Assembly: GCA_017654855.1 (NCBI GenBank)
Contig: CM030334.1
Coordinates: 806,001-870,000, forward strand
Direction of reading: 5' to 3'
DNA from: Podospora anserina
Taxonomy: Eukaryota
Length of the DNA stretch: 64,000 nt
Shown piece after piece: positions 6,639 through 60,170 of the stretch. The number at the start of each line of letters is the position of its first letter. Positions within the stretch are counted from its first letter, which is position 1. The notes beneath the pieces were generated by a model. It did no database searches and was not told the DNA's origin. It saw only the letters and a list, made by a program, of their open reading frames with translations. Made by a program: the position numbers and the translations under genes.

Positions 6639-9600
6639 ATGCCAACAACACACGTTGAGCCGGGGTCGGAAGCCCTGCTCGAGGAGATAGCCAATTCGTT
6701 ATGGAAATCCAAGAAAGTTGTCGTTATCACGGGCGCCGGCATCAGTACAAACTCGGGCATTCCGGTATGCAAAACGGGACGCGTTCCGCCCGACCTACAC
6801 TTCGCTGACAGCCTTTCTAGGATTTCCGCTCAGAGAACGGTCTGTATTCTTTGATCCAAGCACAGTTCGATGCTGCCGAAAAGCAACAAGATCACCCCTC
6901 GAGCGCTAGCGACGCGTCAGATTCTTCATCAGAAGAGCGTCCGACGAAACGACGAAGGGCTTCACACGATCTCTCCCGACCGATCGACGGTACCGAGTTA
7001 CCAGGCCAATGGCCTCATAACACTGCTCAAAACACAATAAAATCAGAAAAAGGTCATGGAGCTGTTTCCGTCAACCCGGAATCGTCAGATCCCACCGATG
7101 ATGACCCGTTAGCACAGCCTGCAACACCGCGAGACACATCGGGACCACAGGAGGATGTCACATTGAGAGACGTGGAAAATTCGGAGCATGCGCCAGGGCC
7201 GCCCACAGTGGAATCGGCAAACGCTTCGTTTGGCGCTGAGAAACCGGTCGAGCCTCCGCTATCTAGAGGCCTGACGCCGTTGCCGAGTCCTAGACTCAAA
7301 GTGCCCGAAGGTCGCCCCGAGATCACGCCTGGCCGCATAATGATGGGACCTGGCCCATCGTTCACGTCATCTCCTCCTAGTATGCCCGTTGATGCGCCGC
7401 GTCTTCGTTCTAGACCAGACATGCTGGCACACACAAGAAGCTCCTCGCCGCTCTCGTCACCGCCTCCCATTTCTTATGACCCTTATCAGGAGTCACCAGA
7501 GGGGTCGTCATGCTCGTCGAGCGGATCATCATCTCGGTCAGAGAGTGAGGAGCCCTCTTCCGTGTCCACGCCACTCCTCACATCGCAAACGTGGTACGCC
7601 TCCTCTGGTCGAACGTCGCTACCACACATGAAAGGCAAAGATCTTTTTGACGCGCAAATCTGGTCTTGCCCACTCAAGACGTCTGTCTTCTACACATTTG
7701 CGACCACGTTGAGAAACAAGGTCCGCACCGCTCAGCCTACGAACAGTCATCGGTTTGTCAGTGTCTTGCGGGATAGCAGAAAACTGGTCCGGTGCTACAC
7801 CCAAAATATTGATCAGCTTGAAGAGCGCGTCGGTCTTTCAACATCGCTCACGTTGGGCGCTGGAAGCCGCTATCGTTTTTCCGCCAGAGCAGGACGCAGC
7901 TCTGCTGTGAGCCGGAGCTTGCCGAAAGGCCCCGAGGTCTCGGATCTATCAGGGGATGGATGCTCTCAGCAGGACTTGGGGCAGCCTCCCGCATCACAGA
8001 CCGAACCTGAATCACAGGAATTGAAAGATGAATCTGGCAATGGAGAGCCTGAGGGCAAGCAGGAATATGATGGGTCTGGGTCAGACTCCTCGCAAGCGGT
8101 TCCTAGCTCATCACAGCCCCCATCTTCACAACCTGTGCCATCAGGACCAAAGCGTGGTGTCGAGTGTGTTTTCCTACACGGTTCCTTGGCAGAACTGCGA
8201 TGCTTTGTGTGTGCGAAAACGGCAACCTGGGAAGACGAAGAACGGCAAGCTGAGACTCTGGCTGGTCGCCAACCCACCTGCCCACATTGTGCAGGAGCAA
8301 CAGCAGCTCGGGAAGAAAAAGGAAAACGTGCCCTTGGCGTTGGCAAACTCCGACCTGACATTGTGCTCTACGGCGAAGAGCATCCCCATGCTCACCTCAT
8401 TAGCCCTTTGGTGCAACATGACTTATCGTTGGGTCCAGACATGCTGCTCATCCTTGGCACCAGCATGCGTGTCCATGGGCTAAAGGTTCTCGTCCGGGAA
8501 TTTGCCAAGGCGGTACACGATCGGGGAGGAAAGGTTGTGTTTGTGAACTTTACAAAGCCACCGGAGAGTGTGTGGGCTGATGTCCTCGATTTTTGGGTGC
8601 AATGGGACTGCGACGCTTGGGTCGAGGATCTCCAACATCGAAAACCCGCCCTGTGGCTTCCTCCCGGTACTGTCCTCCCAGATCAAGTCAAGGTCAAAGG
8701 GGCTAAGGGTCCACGGAAGCAGAGCGGCGGTGAAACAGGCAAGCGAAAGGAGCCAGCCGACACGGCGTCTAAGAAGCGCAAAGAGGTGAATGGACCAAGT
8801 CGCAAGAAGCAGAAGCGCGAGATCGATGAGGTGGCGGACTCGGTCATTGTAGCACTTGATCCGGCAGATGTGCGAGAGCCCTCTCCTCCGCCAGCTTTGG
8901 AGGTGCCAGTCATACCCGTCACACCACCAGTACCATCGCCGCCGGCAGCACCTCCTGTTCGACCTGAGGTGGTTCGCGAAATCCCACGTCTTCGGCCAGA
9001 AGCTCCTCCTCGGCCGAGAGAAATGGCCATGACGACCGATAGGCTTCCTCCGCCAATACCTCTGCCAGGCCCGTCGCCGTTATCCATGTCAATGACCATA
9101 TCGCCGCCTCCTAAGCCAACACGATCAGCTCCACCATTACCTCCCGCAGCCCCAGTTATCCCCGAACTCAAGCCTATTCCACGACGGCCGGCCAACAGGG
9201 TCGTCGCACGCGAGCCCAAACTGAACCCCGATGCAAAACGACCTGCTTCGATACGAGACCACAAGCTGAATGGGGCCTATCTTACCTTTAAGATACTGGG
9301 TGATCTGAAAAGGATTACTGGCGAACCACCAGTTGCGTTCTACACACCTTCCCCTAGTCCGGTTGCTTCGAGGCCAAAGCCAAAACGGGCTCGCAAGTCA
9401 GCGCCTAGTGCTCTTCAGGGCGTTGGCCTAGAATCTGCAGACTCCACTTTGATGATGGAGGATGACGTCGAAGCTAATGACTCGAGGGGTCTAGCTCACG
9501 AAAGTTCAGAGGTTAAGGATGAACGGGTCACCAACCCCATGGATGGAGCGGTTGGCGTCCCCGACATCCCTGTCAGCCAAGTAGTGTCCTCGATATCCGC

Positions 9601-48858: not shown

Positions 48859-49270
48859 GGCGACGACGGTTTCAACGATGGCAGCGATTGGATAATGGCT
48901 GGAATGTAGACTGTCGAGTTGGGTGGATCGAACTGCTCAGGAAGGAATGAATGTCGACTCGGTGGGCGTGTGTTTAATGTTTCTTCTGCCCCACGAAAAT
49001 AGAGAGCTCCAAAGGTCGGGTCGTCGCAAGTTGGTTGACCGTTGCACTGTGCGACTGTTGACCTCTGCCGCCGCGCAGCAACCAAAAAAAAGAAGCTTGG
49101 GCCCCGTCGCGCTTGAGCCGCGCCAGAAGCTCCATTCGCGCCTCACCGCCTGCCTAAAAAGGTGTACCTCACCGGCCCATTAGCTAATGCTCCAAACAAC
49201 CTTCTTTGGCCATCTCATGTTTCTGCTTCTTTGACAAAACTGCGACTTTGCTGAACACAACCTACCCAAC

Positions 49271-50380
49271 ATGTCTTCATCACAGCCCCCCATGGATATC
49301 GACGAGGACGAGGACTTTTATGGTGACTCCGATCAGGAGGCCACCCCCGCGACCACCACCACTGCCCAACCTGCTGCGACTGCTACTGCTCCCCCAGCCG
49401 CCCCCAAGAACGACAGCAACTCCGATCTAGAGGAAGGCGAAGAGGAAGACGAAGGCGGCGAGATGGACGAGGACGAGGATAGTGTTTGTACACCTTACAT
49501 CTTCAGGCTCGGTCCCCAATTGCTAACATTTCCTTCCAGGACATCGACATTATCACCGAGAGAAAAGACAACTTCCAGCCCGCCCCTCCACCGTGAGTTC
49601 TACCTCCTACCCACCGCTTGCGCCAAAACTGACAATCATCCCAGACAATCCAAATACAGCGAGATCCGAAATATTCCCCAACGATCAACAACCGCCCCCG
49701 AAGGCGCCCCCCCAAAACAATCCCCCTCCGTCCCCCGCGAGGAGCCCCGCCAGCAACAACAAACCGAGCTACCCCCGGTGTCAACCTCCAAGATCGATGT
49801 CAACGCCATCCCGATCCACAAGCCCACCGGCAAGCCCCTCACACAAGTAAACATCGACGAAGACCTCCCAGACAACGACAAGCCCTGGCGCAAACCGGGC
49901 ACCGATCTGTCGGATTACTTCAACTACGGCTTTGACGAGTTCACCTGGGCTCTCTATGCCCAAAAGCAGGAGGCCATGCGGGGGGAGTATAACCAGGATG
50001 CTATCGCTCAGAACAACACAAAGATGATGGAGGAGATGACCAAGATGATGATGATGGGCGGCATGATACCTGGTGCTGGTGGGCCAGGCGGACCGGGGAT
50101 GGGTGTTCCTGGCGGTGGTCCTCAAATGCAGGGGATGGATGGTATGGCACCAGAGATGCAGGCGATGATGCAGCAGATGATGGCGAGTGGGATGGATCCG
50201 AGCCAGATGGGCGATATGAGTGGCATGTTCCAGGGTGGGCAGCAACCTGGTGGTCCTGGTGGGCAGCAAGGTCAAGGAGGGTTTGGTCAGGGTGGGTTTG
50301 GGGGGAATCAAGGGCAGGGTTATGGATATGACCAGCAGATGGGTGGTGGGAGAGGGAGGGGAAGAAGGGGGAGGTGGTAA
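49271..50380 (+). CDS. FIP1: Polyadenylation factor Fip1; 3 exons (introns 49484-49539, 49593-49644)
   Basis: Acidic N-terminus, spliced DS|DIDIITE, Fip1 motif [23 protein letters not shown] and RGG tail. Confidence 0.95.
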
Positions 50381-51916
50381 ATGTGTGTGTGGTGTGAGTG
50401 TACGATACCCTTAAAATGGGTTACTGGATCAGGATAATGTTATGTCAAGGCAAGGAGTTATATTGGTACACGTTGTTTCTACATTCAGACTGTGACACAT
50501 GTTACTATTCGGTGGGACAAGCATTCGGTGGTCTGATGAACCCCTTTACATCTGATCGATCCATCATTTTAGCTCTCGAATTCAGTGATGCTCACCTTTG
50601 AGCCCATGTCTCTGCACCCCCTATGGCAGCTCAGCTTTGTGATCCCGTTTCATGCAACATGGTGTTTTATCACAGTGCCGTTGTTTCTTGGCCCCTAGAC
50701 AAGAGAGCTGATGCACAAATGTGCGTCTTCGCTCCCTCGTCTTGGTGGTCGCGCTTTATCCACCCCTGATGGAAGACGTCCTACCTACCCAATAATGGAA
50801 CGGGTTGAGGATGGCAATTCTGGGGTGGAGGAGGGTGATGAAAGAACTGGGGCTATTGATATGAATGAGGAAAGGTTGGAAGAAGTGGTGGTGTGAGTCG
50901 GGGCTGGCGCTGTGGAGAGATGTGCATGGAGAGAAAAGAAGAAAGAAATAGGAGGAAAATAAGGAAAATAAGAATAGATCAAGAAAGGAATCCTGGGCAT
51001 ATTTATTGAGCTCATGATTGTAATACTTCTGCGGAACCTTCAAGCTGAGACTATTTTGAGAAAGAAAACCTCAATTATTCGTGTGAAGCTCGGAATATAA
51101 ACCTAACCAAGACCCTTGATAAACCTCTCTTGCTCACGAATCAGTTTTCCCGAAAAACTCAAGTGCTCGTAGAGGTTTGGAGGGGCATTCGCGTGTTCTA
51201 TTTGCTCCCTGCTCCCTGCTCATGTAAGTGATGGATCCAGTAGTTGTGTAAGTGGTGTGTCTGAGCAACTGTATGAGCGGGCGGTGAATCCAGTAAAAGG
51301 GGTTGTGAATGGCGACGGTCTGTTCTGGTGCCAGACATACCGTGCCACCAAAGCATGTCCAAGACGGTCCGCATTCCTCATGCCACATCCTTTGTCCCTG
51401 AGATCAGAATACAAAACCACTCCCACAAGTCTAGCGAACTGCCCGCTCTCCCATCTCCGTATCTGCACTTTTAGCCTTCCCCCACCTAGCCAAAATCCTC
51501 CGCAACCTCCCGTGACGTTTCCCCTTCTGCTTAGTCGACGGTGCTTCTGACTCTATTCCACTTACTCTCTCACCGCCAGAAAAAGCTAAGGATATAGTCG
51601 ATCTCCTTCGCAAAGACCTCGTCCTCCGAGACCGCGCCTCAATCGACCACTCTTCTCCATCCTCTCGCTCGCTACCCCCAGCTGAATCAACATCAAACCA
51701 ACCCGGATAGTGGCGGTCCGAGTCTGACCCTCGGTGGCTTCTGCGACCTGCCGAGCGAGAGCGAGGTTCGGACCGGAAACGGCCCCTTCGTGGATGTTCA
51801 AAGGACGAGTCTGTATCGCTTTCCTCCTCAGACATGGACCAGTACGAGCTGCTGACGTCGCTCCTTGGTCGTCGTGGGCGGCGTGCTGATCTGTTTGCTT
51901 TCTTTCTGCCCATGAG

Positions 51917-54900
51917 TCAGAGCCCAATGGCCACCAACATTGGTAGTGCAATACACATGAAGAGTGTGTTGCCAATACGAGATAGAAAGCGGCGGATCCC
52001 AGTCAGAAAGTGGTGGAGCGGGTAGTCAGTGATGTATCTGTCATTCCAACGGCTACCACTGAAAGGACTCCGTCTGCTCCGTTGGAGATACTGTTGCCAC
52101 TTCCACAGGCGACGAAGCCCTGGGATATGGGTGTGAAAGGTGAACGTGCCAAATAGTTTGGCGTAACCGGGATCGTTGCTGCCGGCAGAGTGCCTAAGCG
52201 GTCCAAACCAATTTAACCATCTCCCATGTTGGACGGGTTTGTTCAAAGAGGCAGTCTTTCCTCGGGACTTTGGCGGTGGCAATTGATGATCAACAACTGT
52301 GGTTTCCTTGTCTGAGTCGTAATCGCCGGTACGTAGTATAACCCCAGGCTGACCGTCGACACCAGGAGCCTTGTTACCACCGCCTTGTGCGTCCTTCTTT
52401 TTTACAAGGCGACGATATGCCTTCCGAACAGCGTCAGACAGGTCGTTCACGTAAACCGCTATGATGACTAGTGGTGTGAAGATGGAAGCAGAGATGCCAA
52501 CTGTGACATGGTCCAATGTTAGCACTCAGTGATTTGTAGACGACAGTTTCTGCGAGCTTACACAGATAACCGCAAACTTGACCGAGCGGCCACGAGGTTT
52601 CTTCTGAGGCCTCATCTTTGGGGAAGATATCGACGTCCAAAGCAAAGAAACTGGCCATAAAAGATAGCGGCAGCTAGGGTTTCCCATGATTAGCATCAAA
52701 ATACCAGGAACAAAGCGCCGGACAACCTACAAAGATGGCTGTCACAATTGTGAAGAAGAGAATTGTCTGGGCGACTCGTCAGCAAGGACATCATAAGATG
52801 GGAACTTGGAACCTCACATTTCCCTGTCTCTGCGTTTCTTCCGACCCTTCACGTGAAAATCGCGCCTCCCAGCCGTTCGCGTGTTTCTGTTTCAAGTCAA
52901 GAAGACTTTCCAGCTGTCATTGAAGGTTAATAACGGCGAAGGCTCTCAGGGCCTTTTTGCGCCAAAACTCACCAAGGATTGGACTTTTTCGGCCACTTCC
53001 AACATGTTTGTGACGACTCGGATGTGACCTTGAACGATGCCGAGGGTCCCATACATCAGGTCAGGGTGGGTGAGGAGAGCTTTCTGCTTCTTCGTTTCTG
53101 GCTTGTTTAACCGATCTGACGAGGCCGTCGGTCTCCGTTCCTCCTGATCTCGCCTTTTCGCCTCTGGGCTTTTTGTCAGTTGTGGTGGGGGTCCTGCCGC
53201 CTGTTGTTCAGATTGTCCTTCCTTCCCCTTCCCCTTTAACTCTCCTTGGCTTGAACTTCGAGCGAGTTCTCCACCGTTGGAGTATTCACCACCTTGTATT
53301 GAACTGTCGGTTGGGAGAGTTCCAGTGGCCTGTTGATGGCACAGGACCTCTTGGAAGTGAACATGCCTAGGTGGCACATCTGACCCAACCTTCGAGGTAT
53401 CGTTTACTACCGGCCCCTGCCCAAAGGCTCGAAGCAAGTCCCTTACTAAACCTTCAATCTTACGGTTCCGCAGCGGCTTATCGGCGTCATCTTCCTCGTC
53501 GCTTTCGTCATCTCTCCCTTTCTTAGGGTAGAGTAGCAAAAGACTCTGAAGCACCGTCTCCTGTTGTGACAAAATAGGCTTGATAATGGTTAGCTCATCC
53601 TGGATGTCCATAATCTCAATGAGAAGCTTTGTCTCCTCGTCAAGGCGTAAGAGGGACTCGATTTCTTTCTTCTTCTTTTTTGGACTGAGGTTTCCCTTCT
53701 CTAATCGAGTGGTAATTCGACGAAACTCGTCAAAAAGGAGGTTCTGCTTCTCAGACACACTGTTGATGGAACCTCTGAAGCAATCCTCAAAACGAAACCC
53801 CGCAGGCCCCTTCCGCTTGCAAAAGTCAAGGCTTGTTCTGAGAATCAGGCGGAGCAGGTGTTCGGCCGAGCGGATGAGTGGTCTTTCTTTGTTGCCTCCA
53901 AGCTCGGCCATTAGGGCCTTCATGAGATCGTAAGACTCGTCTCCATTCCATGTGGTTGGAAAGCTCGTGATGACGGTCCCTTTGATCAGGGTCAGTAGGC
54001 TATACCATGTAGCGTGTTGGCAGACGTACCTTTATAGAGAATCCACACCCACAGCTGATCAACCATGATGATGGGTCTGTCCTTGGCCTTGTCGCATGCC
54101 TTTGTGTCCTTGGCCCATTTATAAGCAACCTGACTCTTGTCTCTTGTCTCAGTCGAGCTTAGCATGTAATAAGAAAACTGATCCAGCGTGCGGCGACAAT
54201 GCACAGGCTTGGGCGAACGTAAGTAGCCGTCTAACAGAAGCGATTGATTGCTAGCAGGCATGACATTCCGAAGCAGTTTGGCAGCATCCTTGAACGGGCT
54301 ACTGGACGTGGAATAATATGAAGAAGAGACTTCGCTTCTTCTCTTAGCATGCCTTGAAGGCGACGACTTGGATGCTGCAGCCTCTGAAATTACTTTGTCT
54401 TGCTGTGAGGTTTTCAATTCACCGGAAGCATTCGAGATGGCGTCGCTGAGATACTTGCGGTGCCGGTGACATTCGAAGCCGAAAATGGGTAGCTACCAAG
54501 AGTCAGCATGTCTGTTTCTCGCCCAAGACTCGATGGTCCACCAGACTTACAAAAATCACGATGGCATCAGACTCCTTTGACTCGGACACACTAGATTGGC
54601 TAGACCCCAATTTATCAACAGCGGCAACATCTCCAGGACCCAAGGTAAGCGTAATTCCACTTTCTGAAGAGCTTCCTCGTCGGACTGCGTTCGGCCTTTC
54701 AGTGGACTGCGTCTTTTCAGGGAGTCCATGGGAATGTTTATATCTCTTGGCTTGCGGCATCATGTAACGATCGATCACAGGAGAACCTGGAGTTGTCAGT
54801 AAGAGACTTCATGGTACACGTTTGGACAGCCATGACCGAGGGTGCGGGACTTTGAGAGCACTCTGTACAAGAACAAACTGACCTTGATGGCGCTGACCAC

Positions 54901-57370
54901 CCATGGAACCGTCCTGGATACCTGAACTGATCAATAGGTCCTAGTGAGAATAAGCCAACTGGTTGATCAACGCACAGGCTATGGAAAAACAGGTACGTAC
55001 ATGGACCCATTGCTCCTAATAGGTATGACAGTCAGCGTTTCTGCGACTTGGAATGTTGTGCAGGGACACTTACATTGTTGGCAGGTAAATGCACCCAACG
55101 ACACAATGCCTTCTCTCTCGCTAGGCTGTCTGGCCGCGACATGTCGAGCGTACGGGTTACCCCGAGATCCCCGCTGTAGATTACGTCTGTCACAGTTGCA
55201 AAGTCCCAATTGAACTTTTCAGACCACTTTGACCCACGGCGTTTCGTTTGCATGAATATCTCCAACAGGAACATGTCAAAGACATCGCATGCCGAGGCCT
55301 GTGTCGAGCCAGGCTCGGGATTGGTGACTCTCTCTAACACGTGATTCATCGTTAACGAGTTCCCTACGATCAAGTTTTTCCTCAACCGCTTGATCCATGC
55401 ATTCTCAAGTCCAGTTGCGTAGTGCCAGGGGGAGTTGCCGAGAATATCCTTGTCATCCACTTGCAAGCCCGTGTTAGCCTTCACAAGTAGCTTGATTATC
55501 TGCGTGAAGACGGCCTTCTTGGCGTCTTTTTCCTGGACTGCCTGGCGAATGGCCGTCGTCAGAGGGGATCTCCCGTTGTTGTCCTTTTCTGTAAGCGACG
55601 CCTTGCCTTTGTAGACAAGATTCTTGACAGCGCTTGAATTGCCTGCTTCCACCGCGAGGTGTAGCGGGGTCAAGCCTTTTTGGTCTTTGAGATTGACCGG
55701 AAATCGTTCCTTGGAAAGATCTGGATGACGCGCTCGCAGTACTGTGGATTGTGCGGTGCAGTGCTTGACGAGGATAGAACGCTTAATAATCTCGACCAGA
55801 GACTTGAAGTCCTCATCCTCATTCCCGTCGAATCTGCTAAGGCGGTGGGATGTTCTGGATCTTCTCTCTAGCAACATCACTGACGGGTGTTTGGGGACAA
55901 TTGCTTGTCGGTGGGTAGTTAGTAAGCGTGGTAATAATTGAAGTGAGCTCTGGTAAGGCACTACTGACCCTGTCACCCTCTTTCACTGGGAGGTAGTGCC
56001 ATGCTAGGCAAATCTGATTTGCCGAGGCGGTGCTTGAGAATGTGTTCCACAGATAAGAACCGTCGATCTTTCTGCTGTCTGAGGCCTTGATCAAGCCCAA
56101 ATCGCCGTTATCGCTGCTTCCAAACCAGTCGTCTGTCCAGGTTCTGTTTGATAATTGGCTACGACTGCGCGGGTACAGCTCGAGATCTGAGGATTTGCTA
56201 GGAGAAGGCGCATCCATCAGAAGCACGCCAGCAACTAAGCCGAGATGTATACTTGATTTGGTGTCATCCGTCTCCGCCAGTCGAAGTTTGACGACGGCCC
56301 GCTGAGCAATAAGCGCGCCAAACCCAAGGCCTATGAAGACGATAGGCACCTCTGCGAACCCAGTTTCACCCGGAGGTCGCAGTTGTGCGAGACGTTCGAG
56401 CAGGTCCGCCGCTTTCTCGTCGAGATATTTGAATGGTCCGTTGGAGGCGGTCTCTATGTCAGAGTACGTGTAGCACAGAACTCGGGCACGCTGAATCTCT
56501 GCTGGCAGCATGTGGGGGTCGGTCAGCCAGTTGACACGTCTTTCTGTCCCACGATCGGAAGATGGCCTATCTGTCGACGGTTTGTTTGGGGCACCAGCAT
56601 CAGTGACGTTTACCGGCCCTTGGTTCGAAGTATCTGGCTTGCTAACCGGCGCATCTTGTGGCTGCTCATCTTGGTCTCGCGGCGAGATCGGACGTTTGGA
56701 CATCTGTTGACTTTCCAACCTGGTCTCAGCTTCAGCATCATCAGTACCTCCAATGTCTGTCTCCGGAACCGTTGGGAGCCATGATAAGACAGTTGACTGG
56801 ACCATTTCATATCTCCCTCGCCGTTGACCAGGCGCAGGGCTACCATCGCTACCCAGTTTGCGGGCTTCATCAAGGCTTGTCTTGAGAATTGATGTCGTGT
56901 TCACCAAGCGCCGGGGGTCGTTCTGGCGTCGCTTAAGCTTTTTACGATGAACCCAGGCCGTTTCCAGTGCTTCGCCAATGTCGTGGATTGCAATGATGTC
57001 GACGCACGGCATATAATGGTTGCCTGTCGGGTAGGAGACATGAAGTTCCGAGAACGGCTATAGGCGTTAGTTAGTAATGCATTTCGCGTCTGATTTAGTC
57101 TCAGTTGCTCACCCTAAGAATACTGGTCACAGCATTCCCGAACTCCTGTGTCTTGTTGATGGCGCTGGGATTGGTTTGGTTTGCCTCTCCCTGAGTGGGT
57201 GCACCTGGATCCTGGGGGTTATCAGGAGTCTTTGGTGTTTTCTGCAGATTGAGGCGCTCGCGAATCCTTGCCGGTATGGATTGGTTAGCTGGCAGTGGCC
57301 TGGAGTCGTCAACGCTGCCTGATTCCAAGGGATTCGCGTTTTGCATGGGCCCCTCGCTTGTGGTCGTCAT
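51917..57370 (-). CDS. ~12-exon protein: SesB-like alpha/beta-hydrolase fold + ankyrin repeats + CorA-like transmembrane domain; may extend to 51431 past one in-frame TGA
   Basis: Hydrolase-like: CVDIIAIHDIG, NWLTDPHMLP...ARVLCYTY, PIVFIGLGFG. Ankyrin: DQKGLTPLHLAVEAG, DNNGRSPLTTA, DILGNSPWHYA. CorA-associated: RWVHLPANN|EQWVH|DL, HCRRTLDQFSY, IMVDQLWVWIL, TVITSFP, EIMDIQDEL, LLDLKQKHAN...RQGN|TILFFTIVTAIF|LPLSFMASFFALDV. Most junctions are canonical and in phase; the one at ~55900-55975 is not resolved. Confidence 0.8.
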
Positions 57371-57899
57371 CGCTGGACAGGCGGTTTAGCTGAACCCCAA
57401 CAACGCTGCGAAGAAATCAGCTTTCGTGCGACTACCATGACCGCTGGATGGCGAATATATGTTCTAATCTTGCCCTGAGCCGTTATGGACAGGACCCTGT
57501 CCTCATGGAATGAGCAGCAGGCGTTCGTGGCGTTCCATTGACGGCTTGGGGGTCATGAAATGGGCTGAAACGCGATTCAATTGGTCCAAGAAAAACGTCA
57601 ATGAAACGCATATTGGGAACACTGCATTTGGTGTTGTCGAATTCAGCTATGATGAGCTGAAAACCGCGCAAAGGTTCGCAGAGCCTTGCTATCGGAGTGC
57701 TTTGATTTGTGTGCGCTTGATGCGGGTGGCATGACTCAAGGGGTCCCAGCTGCATGTTGCGTCTGCATGTTCGGCATGTTTTTGTGGTACGCTGTCATAC
57801 TTGTTGCTGGTTCGGGGCGGAAGAGTGAGGCTGGAGGGAAATCGCCCATGCTTTGAACTCGTTGATCATTTGGAAGTCAGCAAAAGTATAATGAGGGAA

Positions 57900-60170
57900 C
57901 CCACCCTAAGAGAAAGGCGGCGGGCCGCAATGGAGAATAAGGTTCTCATCCTGGTGGGACACGATATCCCACCCACCACCCTCTCGTTTCCGTTTCTTGA
58001 TTACGTTATTACGTTGCTCGACCCGAGCTTCTGGGCAGCTGTTCTCTGCACCCCTGCGCAGGTTGTTCCGGGAAAAGGTGCCCTTCGCCTGCATTGATCA
58101 AGACATCAATCGACGTTAGTTGGGTTCCATGTTTTTGGGTGACCGATTGAACACAGATTTCAGCTTATGGCCCTCTCTGAGTTCGGATTCGCCGCAAATA
58201 TCTCCATAATGCCTAGCTTAGTTAGGAGCTCAAACCGAGTAGCATTGGACCCCTACGAAGAATGCATCGGGTATGTATTCACGATGATGGACTTGCCAAA
58301 CGGAGCAGACTTACCTGAAGAAGCTCAATCAGCGCTTGCCATCTCTCGGTGAAAGAAGTCATAGACCTGGTAGTGCAACCCTCTGTGGGCCTTCAGCACC
58401 CCGATCCCACCGCGAGACATCCTGATCACAGCCAGCTAAAAAACAGTGTCAACATTTCGCCGCCTTGAAAGGGACCTCGACGACGGTTCTCTTCTTTTTC
58501 TACGTACCAAAGTACCATAGGCTGCAAACTCGACTTGGTCCGGATGACGCTCACAGATCCCCTTGCTCGGAAAGCTTTCTTCGCCAGGATACAGGCAGTG
58601 GTGAGAACTCCCCAGAGAAGCTTCTTCTTCTCCTCCTTCGCTTGGTCCGCGGAAGGGATAGCGGTCCTGTTTGATAACCAATGGAATGATCCAGGCCTTT
58701 GGAACCGAACGGGCTGTAGACTCTCAACCCACTTGGCTTGGTAATTCTTCTTGGATTCGGGGTAATCAGCTGCAATGATATCGTAGAGCTGTTTTTTGAG
58801 AGCTTACTTTTCGGCATCCGATGTTGCGATATTGTCCTTGTTCCGGTCACCGTTGTAGATGTTGGACGCTTCGATCATGAGAGACCAGAATCGTCCTCGT
58901 TCTTGATGAAGCCGCCGCGCTCTCGGTCGGTCGGCAAAAGCAATACTCAGAAGTCACATCATTTTGAATTCATTGATAGAATACAGCAACCTCTTCCAGC
59001 TCCCTCCTATCTATATGTCTCCTGTTTTCGGCTAACAATTGGTAAATACGAGACCCTTAAACCCGGGAAGGACCAGTTTATCTACTGCCTCAGACACATC
59101 ACTTAAAACTCCACGAAGTAAAAGAAGAAAGACCAAAGAAAAGCAATGCCAACGTCTTATTGGGTTGTTTCCCCAAGCAACTAGGCACCTACGCGACCAT
59201 TAGATGGGGAGAATCCCGCAAGACAAGGTATCGCCTTTCAGAGAGAAAAACTGTCCAAACCTCGGGAGCTTCTTGAGATACGATAGAGGAATATAATCAA
59301 GGTACTTGGGCCCACCAGTTGCCATAGTCCAAATCTTGTGAACCATCGTGCCGATCGCTGTCCTCGGCGGGGTCTTCGTAGATGGGATCAGCTCTAGGGT
59401 CTGAATTCAAATCAGGATCCAAGATGTTGAAATCAATGACGTTGAGGCCAAAGGGATTCGGGATATCATCAACGGAGAACCTGGTCCCAAACATATCGAG
59501 GTTGGCGGGATCGAAACCGGCAGGATTGTAGTCGATGTTGCCGGACACTGAGATTGATTGTTGATCAAATCGGGCTGTTGCGAGTGGGATACAGTGCCAT
59601 CGGCCGTAGCTGTATCAAGTGGAGTGTCATTAGTTGGCAGCAACATAATGGTTGACGGGGGCACCGAAACGACCAGGAGAGTTGGCAGCGATGTTATTGT
59701 CAACATGCGCGGCCAAATGATTAAGCGGGTTGGCACCAGATTGGACAGTACCACTCGCAGCGAATTGGTTAGAGATACCAGGAAGAGAATTGGTATCGAT
59801 GGTTCTGTCGTGAGCGTTTTCCGGACCAGAATGAGGATGCTGATTGAACCTCGCATGGCGGCTAGGACGTGGATTGTACCCACAGAATCCTGGTGGTTGA
59901 AGTTACCTCCGGGAATTGAGCGATCGACGGAATTCAGGCCAAAGCTTTGCTGATGGTTGATGACCATACGCAAGTTGTTCAAAAGGTCACTGATCGTTTC
60001 CAAAGTATTCATCCAACCCGGTGAACTGGTCACCACGAGATATGTAGTTTAGATTGTAATAATTGTAGTTTAGATCATCTTAATCGGCGACAGGTGGTCC
60101 CAAATGGTCCGTAGGGTTAGGAGTTGACATCGCAACCTGATCCGTGAAATCCGAAGACACCTGTTCATCA
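57900..60170 (-). pseudogene. Possible heavily decayed gene remnant(s)
   Basis: Protein-like fragments in shifting frames: N/D-rich NQFAASGTVQSGANPLNHL and SGNIDYNPAGFDPANLDMF, then DQVEFAAYGTL, TSFTERWQALIELLQ followed by a GTAAGT donor, and GIMEIFAANPNSE. There is no continuous ORF. Confidence 0.3.

Follow-up and report, generated by a model that had tools for sequence, protein, structure and literature searches.

The locus Pa_3_2370 of Podospora anserina raises the question of whether a gene that appears to join a lipase-like domain, ankyrin repeats and an ion channel in fact makes such a protein, and what this protein would do. The locus lies on the minus strand of a stretch of 64,000 nucleotides (contig CM030334.1 of assembly GCA_017654855.1, positions 806,001 to 870,000; hereafter the window, whose own numbering is used for all positions). 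A first-pass annotation of this DNA had described a fusion of an alpha/beta-hydrolase-like region, about three ankyrin repeats and a CorA-type two-helix membrane module, with a possible role in defence or regulated cell death; the NCBI annotation of the locus, known as Pa_3_2370 from named records, extends to 532 residues only. On balance we favour an answer in two layers: Pa_3_2370 itself is a recently disabled allele that is still transcribed, and the family to which it belongs is a sensor-bearing channel with the CorA fold.

A polyadenylated transcription unit of 12 exons at 51098..57501 is defined by two transcript contigs, X1 with 5761 nt and X8 with 5630 nt; the latter spans the distance from 57389 to the poly(A) end at 51098 in one piece. 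A gene of about 12 exons had been predicted, and joints in contigs from four runs, each belonging to a different study, as well as X8, bear out 12 exons on the minus strand, with 11 GT-AG introns, all of whose donors have G at +5. The RNA nature of the runs is deduced from the transcripts and not from the run records, and they can safely be taken as RNA because they contain spliced joints and a poly(A) tail. Intron 2 (55904..55968; 65 nt, with an AAG acceptor) is spliced in three of the four runs and retained in the other. The joints also define a micro-exon of 15 nt (55001..55015) encoding the conserved residues EQWVH, which is missing from two sister-species annotations (P0159 and P0160).

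When this exon model is translated, the spliced mRNA contains two open reading frames (ORFs) and not one open frame. ORF1 (55877..57370, 457 residues) encodes a disordered N-terminus and most of a pseudo-hydrolase resembling SesB and DUF676 domains, and is ended early by a frameshift; its stop falls at 55879-55877 when intron 2 is spliced and at 55837 when it is retained. ORF2 (51917..55877, 1136 residues from the first Met) lies in the -1 frame and encodes the last hydrolase motif and helix, the ankyrin repeats, the CorA fold and a shortened tail. The two pieces also occur as separate Logan gene calls on transcript-sized contigs, eight for ORF1 (P0166) and 14 for ORF2 (P0164). The first lesion, at 55903..55904, leaves the start of exon 3 one base shorter than in sister species and lies inside the hydrolase fold, since the closing H..(K/R)F....D..(Y/F) motif and helix of SesB domains from NOD-like receptors (NLRs) align behind it. 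The second is a premature TGA at 51917..51919, where the aligned position in sister proteins is Cys; it removes 162 residues from the C-terminus. Both were overlooked by the first-pass annotation, which had placed the end of the gene at 51431; ORF2 stops at 51919-51917, and the interval 51431..51916 is a former C-terminal tail of 161 Arg/Ser-rich residues that remains in frame behind the stop and is identical to residues 1596-1756 of the sister protein P0157 at 154 positions. A third hydrophobic stretch at 51917-51965 (P0157 residues 1580-1598) is followed by basic residues, and the nonsense codon lies close to the end of this stretch; a comparable late hydrophobic peak was seen in one of ten other relatives checked.

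Several other causes for the broken frame were considered. Relative to the window no letters are added or missing in the four runs, and the break is therefore in the organism; this agreement rules out an assembly error. Repeat-induced point mutation (RIP) was likewise ruled out as the cause of the lesions, as a search for a RIP-type dinucleotide shift and for a duplicate copy of Pa_3_2370 found neither. Read-through of the stop at 51919 as a design feature was rejected because the sister proteins have Cys at this position.

Comparison with the sister species shows what the undamaged gene looks like. The Podospora bellae-mahoneyi ortholog (P0157) is a single protein of 1756 residues, identical to the translated window at 440/453 positions of ORF1, 1110/1135 of ORF2 and 154/161 of the tail. 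The junction DR/TIVPKH is in frame in all four sister records that cover it (P0157, P0158, P0159 and P0160), and a comata-like genomic gene call (P0001) reads through the junction intron in a phase that differs by one base from that of the window; the comparison drew on the 15 listed members, of 29, of the protein cluster of this locus. Cys occupies the position of the 51919 TGA in P0157, P0278, P0279 and P0280, which read through it. Among Logan contigs, whose species are judged by sequence only, the stop is common to two alleles (P0275 and P0276) on 18 contigs, and read-through forms occur on four. From the sister records that are in frame and the relatives that carry this Cys it follows that the window copy has two lesions. 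Across 1327 sites the window copy has 16 private amino-acid changes, compared with 16, 22 and 8 in three sisters, and by these sequence comparisons both lesions look recent. Annotations are also shorter in P. pseudoanserina (1386 residues), P. pseudopauciseta (976 and 114) and P. pseudocomata (584), which may reflect further lesions or annotation errors. The predicted fusion in one protein thus stands for the intact sister ortholog and for the family, but not for the window copy, where the frameshift and the nonsense codon interrupt it.

The arrangement at the first lesion nevertheless resembles a recoding site. The sequence C CCA AAC (55889..55895) is a canonical -1 slippery heptamer in the phase of ORF1 and inside the nine-codon overlap of the two frames, for which the chance within nine positions is about 1.6%, as computed after the heptamer had been seen; in TGATG (55875..55879) the stop of ORF1 shares bases with the first ATG of ORF2, and ORF2 continues unbroken through both transmembrane helices. 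It might be supposed that -1 frameshifting, re-initiation at TGATG or use of a minor upstream donor bypasses the break and yields a low-output or two-piece channel. Such -1 frameshifting is proven in P. anserina for PaYIP3 (PMC3777964), which likewise has two overlapping ORFs in a -1 arrangement on one mRNA, and the P. anserina genome paper reports 14 candidate genes for frameshifting or read-through (PMC2441463). However, the shift and the structure of PaYIP3 are conserved across Pezizomycotina, whereas the shift in Pa_3_2370 is not conserved: in all four sister records the frame is open across the junction, and their heptamer forms part of plain V-P-K-H codons. Among pseudoknot-free folds no stable structure stands out in the downstream 74 nt (-16.6 kcal/mol, z -0.83), which 38 of 200 shuffled sequences match or exceed in folding, and the hairpin begins 1 nt past the heptamer, whereas in frameshift genes the stimulatory structure lies 5-9 nt downstream. 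The re-initiation motif UGGGA is absent from the 90 nt preceding the ORF1 stop, and the same copy carries the second, independent nonsense lesion. Programmed frameshifting as the main account was dropped once the sister sequences proved to be in frame, and the slippery heptamer and the stop-start overlap look like coincidences. We consider this bypass improbable, and a useful rescue of Pa_3_2370 equally so.

We are fairly confident that the allele in this strain is null or nearly so: the main mRNA would give a fragment of 457 residues without the last hydrolase motif and helix, and little or no channel. Four observations pull the other way. The mRNA is present in many runs despite its early stop; rare isoforms are dropped from contigs; for Pa_3_2370 a published table (PMC9801653) gives, without coordinates, two donors and two acceptors as alternative splice sites; and a weak donor, GTGACA, 8 nt upstream, would open an in-frame splice path, although it lacks the G at +5 found in all of the observed donors.

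For the function of the intact protein the sequence of its N-terminal domain is informative. SesB-like domains are frequent effector domains of NLRs and are predicted to be of lipase type (PMC4986451). The hydrolase region directly matched NACHT-ANK and NB-ARC-TPR proteins whose elbows read GHS or GHC (E about 1e-7 to 1e-4), and its nucleophile elbow and closing motif align with those of SesB-like (DUF676/PGAP1/SERAC1-type) NLR N-termini. Look-alike clusters in the Atlas (scores 0.91-0.93) carry DUF676 on 23-49% of their members, and of the four other hydrolase matches in the P. anserina genome three stand upstream of an ORF of TPR, NACHT-WD40 or P-loop-TPR type. Judged by the matches to NLR N-termini, the NLR-like loci in the genome and the DUF676 clusters, with no SesB profile used, the N-terminal domain appears kin to SesB-type alpha/beta-hydrolase domains. 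Two results weigh against this assignment: the Pfam alpha/beta-hydrolase match is weak (19.5 bits against a cut-off of 26.3), and a search of the Protein Data Bank (PDB) with the hydrolase profile retrieved no solved structure by sequence. The domain also differs from its NLR counterparts in having Gly in place of Ser or Cys, in lacking an adjoining NACHT or NB-ARC domain and in being followed by a channel. The elbow reads GLGFGA (56314..56331), as the first-pass annotation had noted, so that the nucleophilic Ser of GxSxG is missing; the same position is Gly in 59 of 64 hydrolase-bearing relatives, Asp in three, Ala in one and Ser in one. His469, the candidate catalytic His near the C-terminal motif, is shared by the nearest clade but not by the whole family, and in the window the frameshift precedes it. 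Two relatives of hydrolase-ankyrin-CorA type (P0216 and P0068) keep GHSFG, and versions of the family with an intact active site may therefore exist.

The central part of the protein contains about three recognisable ankyrin repeats (approximately 55370..55700; Pfam, structure model and fold matches), the number originally proposed, with Ank_2 scoring 43.3 bits, above the Pfam cut-off. The region that follows (approximately 52440..55290) comprises an alpha/beta cytoplasmic domain, a stalk helix and two transmembrane helices flanking a loop, with disordered insertions; PF01544 scores 42.1 bits on the intact ortholog against a cut-off of 27, and 16 bits on the single window exon alone. A model of ORF2 built from 61 sequences (predicted local distance difference test, pLDDT, 74.8; predicted template modelling score 0.63) aligned with Thermotoga maritima CorA (5jrw; VIA-align Z 17.5, 316 residues, root-mean-square deviation 11.8) and with the ZntB cytoplasmic domain (3ck6; Z 16.8, 241 residues, deviation 3.1). 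In total six CorA-family entries match ORF2 residues 197-960 (Z 14.6-17.5), and residues 22-177 match ankyrin proteins. The membrane part is therefore a whole CorA fold: the first-pass annotation was right as to the CorA type and the two transmembrane helices, and short in taking these helices for the entire module. Hydropathy peaks at residues 1352 and 1400 of P0157. A single-sequence AlphaFold model was discarded (pLDDT 37); among the matches listed, Foldseek with the full model gave solely ankyrin proteins, which also dominated a PDB sequence search with the family profile. The CorA cytoplasmic part fell among unnamed Atlas clusters at 0.88-0.91, with one PF26616 'CorA-like' cluster at 0.82 that serves as a lead only. 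As anticipated, no NACHT or NB-ARC domain is present: the Pfam families found in the intact ortholog are those of CorA and ankyrin alone, and the part of the protein that follows the repeats has the CorA fold.

The pore-loop motif GMN is called essential in CorA channels (PMC4945025). At the position of this filter Pa_3_2370 has ALD (52635..52643), within the predicted FFALDV (52649-52632), which is likewise present in the sequence. Like the 2-TM-GxN channels (PF01544; CorA, ZntB, CmaX, Alr1, Mnr2 and Mrs2), the protein keeps the fold from the cytoplasmic domain to the second transmembrane helix. Unlike them, it lacks GxN, has long insertions, an N-terminal pseudo-hydrolase with ankyrin repeats and a long C-terminal tail, and belongs to a family that is multi-copy and often decayed. 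On this evidence the product would be neither an NLR nor a recoded gene of the PaYIP3 type, and it has neither the GxN motif nor the SesB nucleophile.

The relatives of Pa_3_2370 show that the combination of domains is not peculiar to Podospora. The hydrolase exon used as a query matched 159 representatives (150 listed), many of them short proteins, as gene callers read on into the intron at the junction, and the CorA side matched 250 proteins (120 listed), whose names place them in what we take to be Sordariomycetes, Dothideomycetes, Eurotiomycetes and Leotiomycetes. Motifs were counted in 130 proteins with the CorA cytoplasmic domain, 64 of them with the hydrolase, after 23 Podospora-complex or near-duplicate records had been dropped. 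GxN was found in none of the 119 readable loops (0/57 with the hydrolase and 0/62 without). The hydrolase-bearing members show 16 different loop triplets among 57, and 48 of the 62 members without the hydrolase keep the loop Asn, mostly as TIN or AIN. In a midpoint-rooted tree 53 proteins without the hydrolase, mostly with TIN or AIN, form a separate clade; as the tree is midpoint-rooted, no order of events is claimed. Conserved ankyrin-CorA proteins of this hydrolase-less clade (P0217-P0273) occur in Aspergillus, Alternaria, Blumeria and others, and are apparently unstudied.

Metagenome loci bear on a different objection, namely that two adjacent genes, one lipase-like and one ANK-CorA, are joined merely by read-through transcription. 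The two separate ORFs on the Pa_3_2370 mRNA and the many short database matches to the hydrolase would fit such an arrangement, but the short matches end at the junction intron, where gene callers fail, the P. bellae-mahoneyi ortholog is one ORF, and the hydrolase fold needs sequence from ORF2. Of 34 metagenome loci, 24 contain both flanking domains, and nine of these (about six independent taxa) are continuous, with neither intron nor stop between hydrolase and ankyrin, which contradicts read-through at the level of the family. The possibility of separate genes, raised in the first-pass annotation, is refuted for the family by these loci, and we regard it as hardly credible overall. Most of the other two-domain loci offer an in-frame intron, two (L047 and L052) are ambiguous, and one (L059) shows a frame break. 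The latter lies near position 8560, at a hydrolase-ankyrin junction without an intron that is continuous in the close relatives L053 and L060, and is either a lesion or an assembly error.

The P. anserina genome contains three hydrolase-ANK-CorA loci, of which Pa_3_2370 and a copy on C1 are visibly broken. The C1 paralog (G000:C1:6045500-6054500) has a frame change in its ankyrin part and stops further on; it was called broken on these visible defects only, as a splice-path test of integrity proved too crude for counting intact copies (weak donors bypass the window lesions, and no path was found in L053, L059 and L065). The paralog on C5 (G000:C5:3400500-3409500) shares this architecture and has an AIG loop and, at the junction, an intron that keeps the frame; from its sequence it looks intact, and it probably has a GC-AG intron. 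Three paralogs each occur in Remersonia thermophila and Echria macrotheca, among the matches listed. The family thus appears dispensable, with copies turning over. In 13 pairs of related metagenome loci the ratio of nonsynonymous to synonymous substitution rates (dN/dS), obtained by a simple counting method from pairs that are not independent, was 0.20-0.30 in 11, with values of 0.07 and 0.11 for the remaining two, both close pairs. Constraint was strongest in the pore-loop segment (0.00-0.18 where computable) and weakest in the hydrolase and ankyrin parts. The low ratios indicate that intact copies are maintained. Single-copy orthologs that are under purifying selection and complement Mg2+ uptake had been named beforehand as an outcome that would refute the proposal; purifying selection was indeed found, but with several copies per genome.

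It is doubtful, though possible, that the family consists of re-tuned metal-ion transporters acting on other divalent ions or in organellar homeostasis, in which the dead lipase and the ankyrin repeats scaffold or localise the channel and have no part in defence. The whole CorA fold is retained, the pore is under purifying selection, and the hydrolase-less sister clade keeps the loop Asn across Aspergillus, Alternaria and Blumeria. In two genome papers CorA expansions are taken to mean Mg2+ uptake (PMC3897900, PMC10694956), in passages where the motif is untested, and the neighbours of family loci are mostly CAZymes, peptidases and transporters. Set against this, one conserved ion filter is hard to reconcile with 16 loop triplets, the family gains and loses copies, its fused domain belongs to a kind that NLRs carry, and the P. 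anserina genome already has at least seven CorA-like loci with GMN elsewhere. With GxN absent from all 57 hydrolase-bearing relatives, these GMN loci elsewhere and the present copy broken, the earlier suggestion that this is not a housekeeping Mg2+ transporter is upheld. Four further CorA-like loci in the genome have altered loops (L019, L023, L024 and L030, with GQN, SIT, SMS and GME, respectively).

Returning to the sensor-bearing channel, the intact family protein would oligomerise like CorA, which forms a pentamer. Its pore would pass cations without selectivity for Mg2+, and gating would follow when a lipid or protein partner binds to the ankyrin repeats or to the dead SesB-like pocket. 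We hold it possible, at somewhat less than an even chance, that the intact protein serves non-self defence or regulated cell death, to which its kinship with an NLR N-terminal domain, the several copies per genome and their frequent decay would point. A role in ion or stress homeostasis is a weaker prospect, and what probability remains falls to other signalling roles. Several findings weigh against defence. The ankyrin repeats are few and degenerate and lie mid-protein, not in a C-terminal array as in fungal NLRs, and the family pairs are under purifying selection and give no average sign of diversifying selection. Of 121 long neighbour ORFs, 73 were scanned, from 14 loci with redundant loci and overlapping frames left out; none of the 73 encoded NACHT or NB-ARC and one encoded HET. 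Moreover, we found no paper on the hydrolase-ankyrin-CorA family and no main-text mention of Pa_3_2370, the supplements of PMC2441463 and PMC13449251 lying outside this search. The HET-domain gene (L063 3-1751, minus strand), about 6 kb upstream of a relative, is the sole defence-type neighbour seen; the neighbourhoods of family loci are not conserved between taxa.

Two known systems offer comparisons. A ligand-activated effector that is a CorA-family membrane protein exists in type III CRISPR immunity (PMC12255297) and, as an immune effector, provides a model for the family by analogy only; it is bacterial, gated by SAM-AMP and encoded in a CRISPR locus. Certain NLR genes of the P. anserina complex carry stops or frameshifts in some strains or species and are intact elsewhere (PMC13449251), as is the case here, but Pa_3_2370 is not an NLR and shows no RIP signature and no duplicate. 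A bolder proposal, that ascomycetes possess undescribed immune or death channels of CorA fold that are gated by a dead SesB domain without any nucleoside triphosphatase, with a P. anserina version dampened through slippage or re-initiation, we regard as speculative and rather unlikely.

Pa_3_2370 sits in a gene-poor island of about 15 kb that extends from Fip1 to XAP5. The Fip1 gene (49235-50616) is convergent, and its poly(A) end at 50616 is about 480 nt from that of Pa_3_2370. The first-pass annotation had placed the locus at the border of a decayed accessory region: the window from 57.5 to 64 kb is indeed gene-poor, with one ORF of at least 150 residues, yet it is single-copy without a RIP-type dinucleotide shift, and the housekeeping genes XAP5 and Methyltransf_10 resume 2-5 kb past the window end. 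Plus-strand GT-AG joints (58269/58323 and 58599/58694) in low-depth contigs mark a spliced transcript at 58269-58885 with no long ORF, which diverges from the Pa_3_2370 promoter and is perhaps non-coding, or else derives from a decayed gene.

A transcribed pseudogene is ordinary by itself. This locus, however, is a natural broken allele in a standard laboratory fungus, accompanied by intact sister orthologs of 97-98% identity and an apparently intact paralog. Fungal genome papers count proteins of this kind as magnesium transporters, whereas GxN is found in none of the 119 readable relatives. Should the pore be gated by the dead SesB domain, the family would represent a fungal CorA-fold effector parallel to the one in CRISPR systems, and fungi would have a way to cell death that needs no NLR switch.

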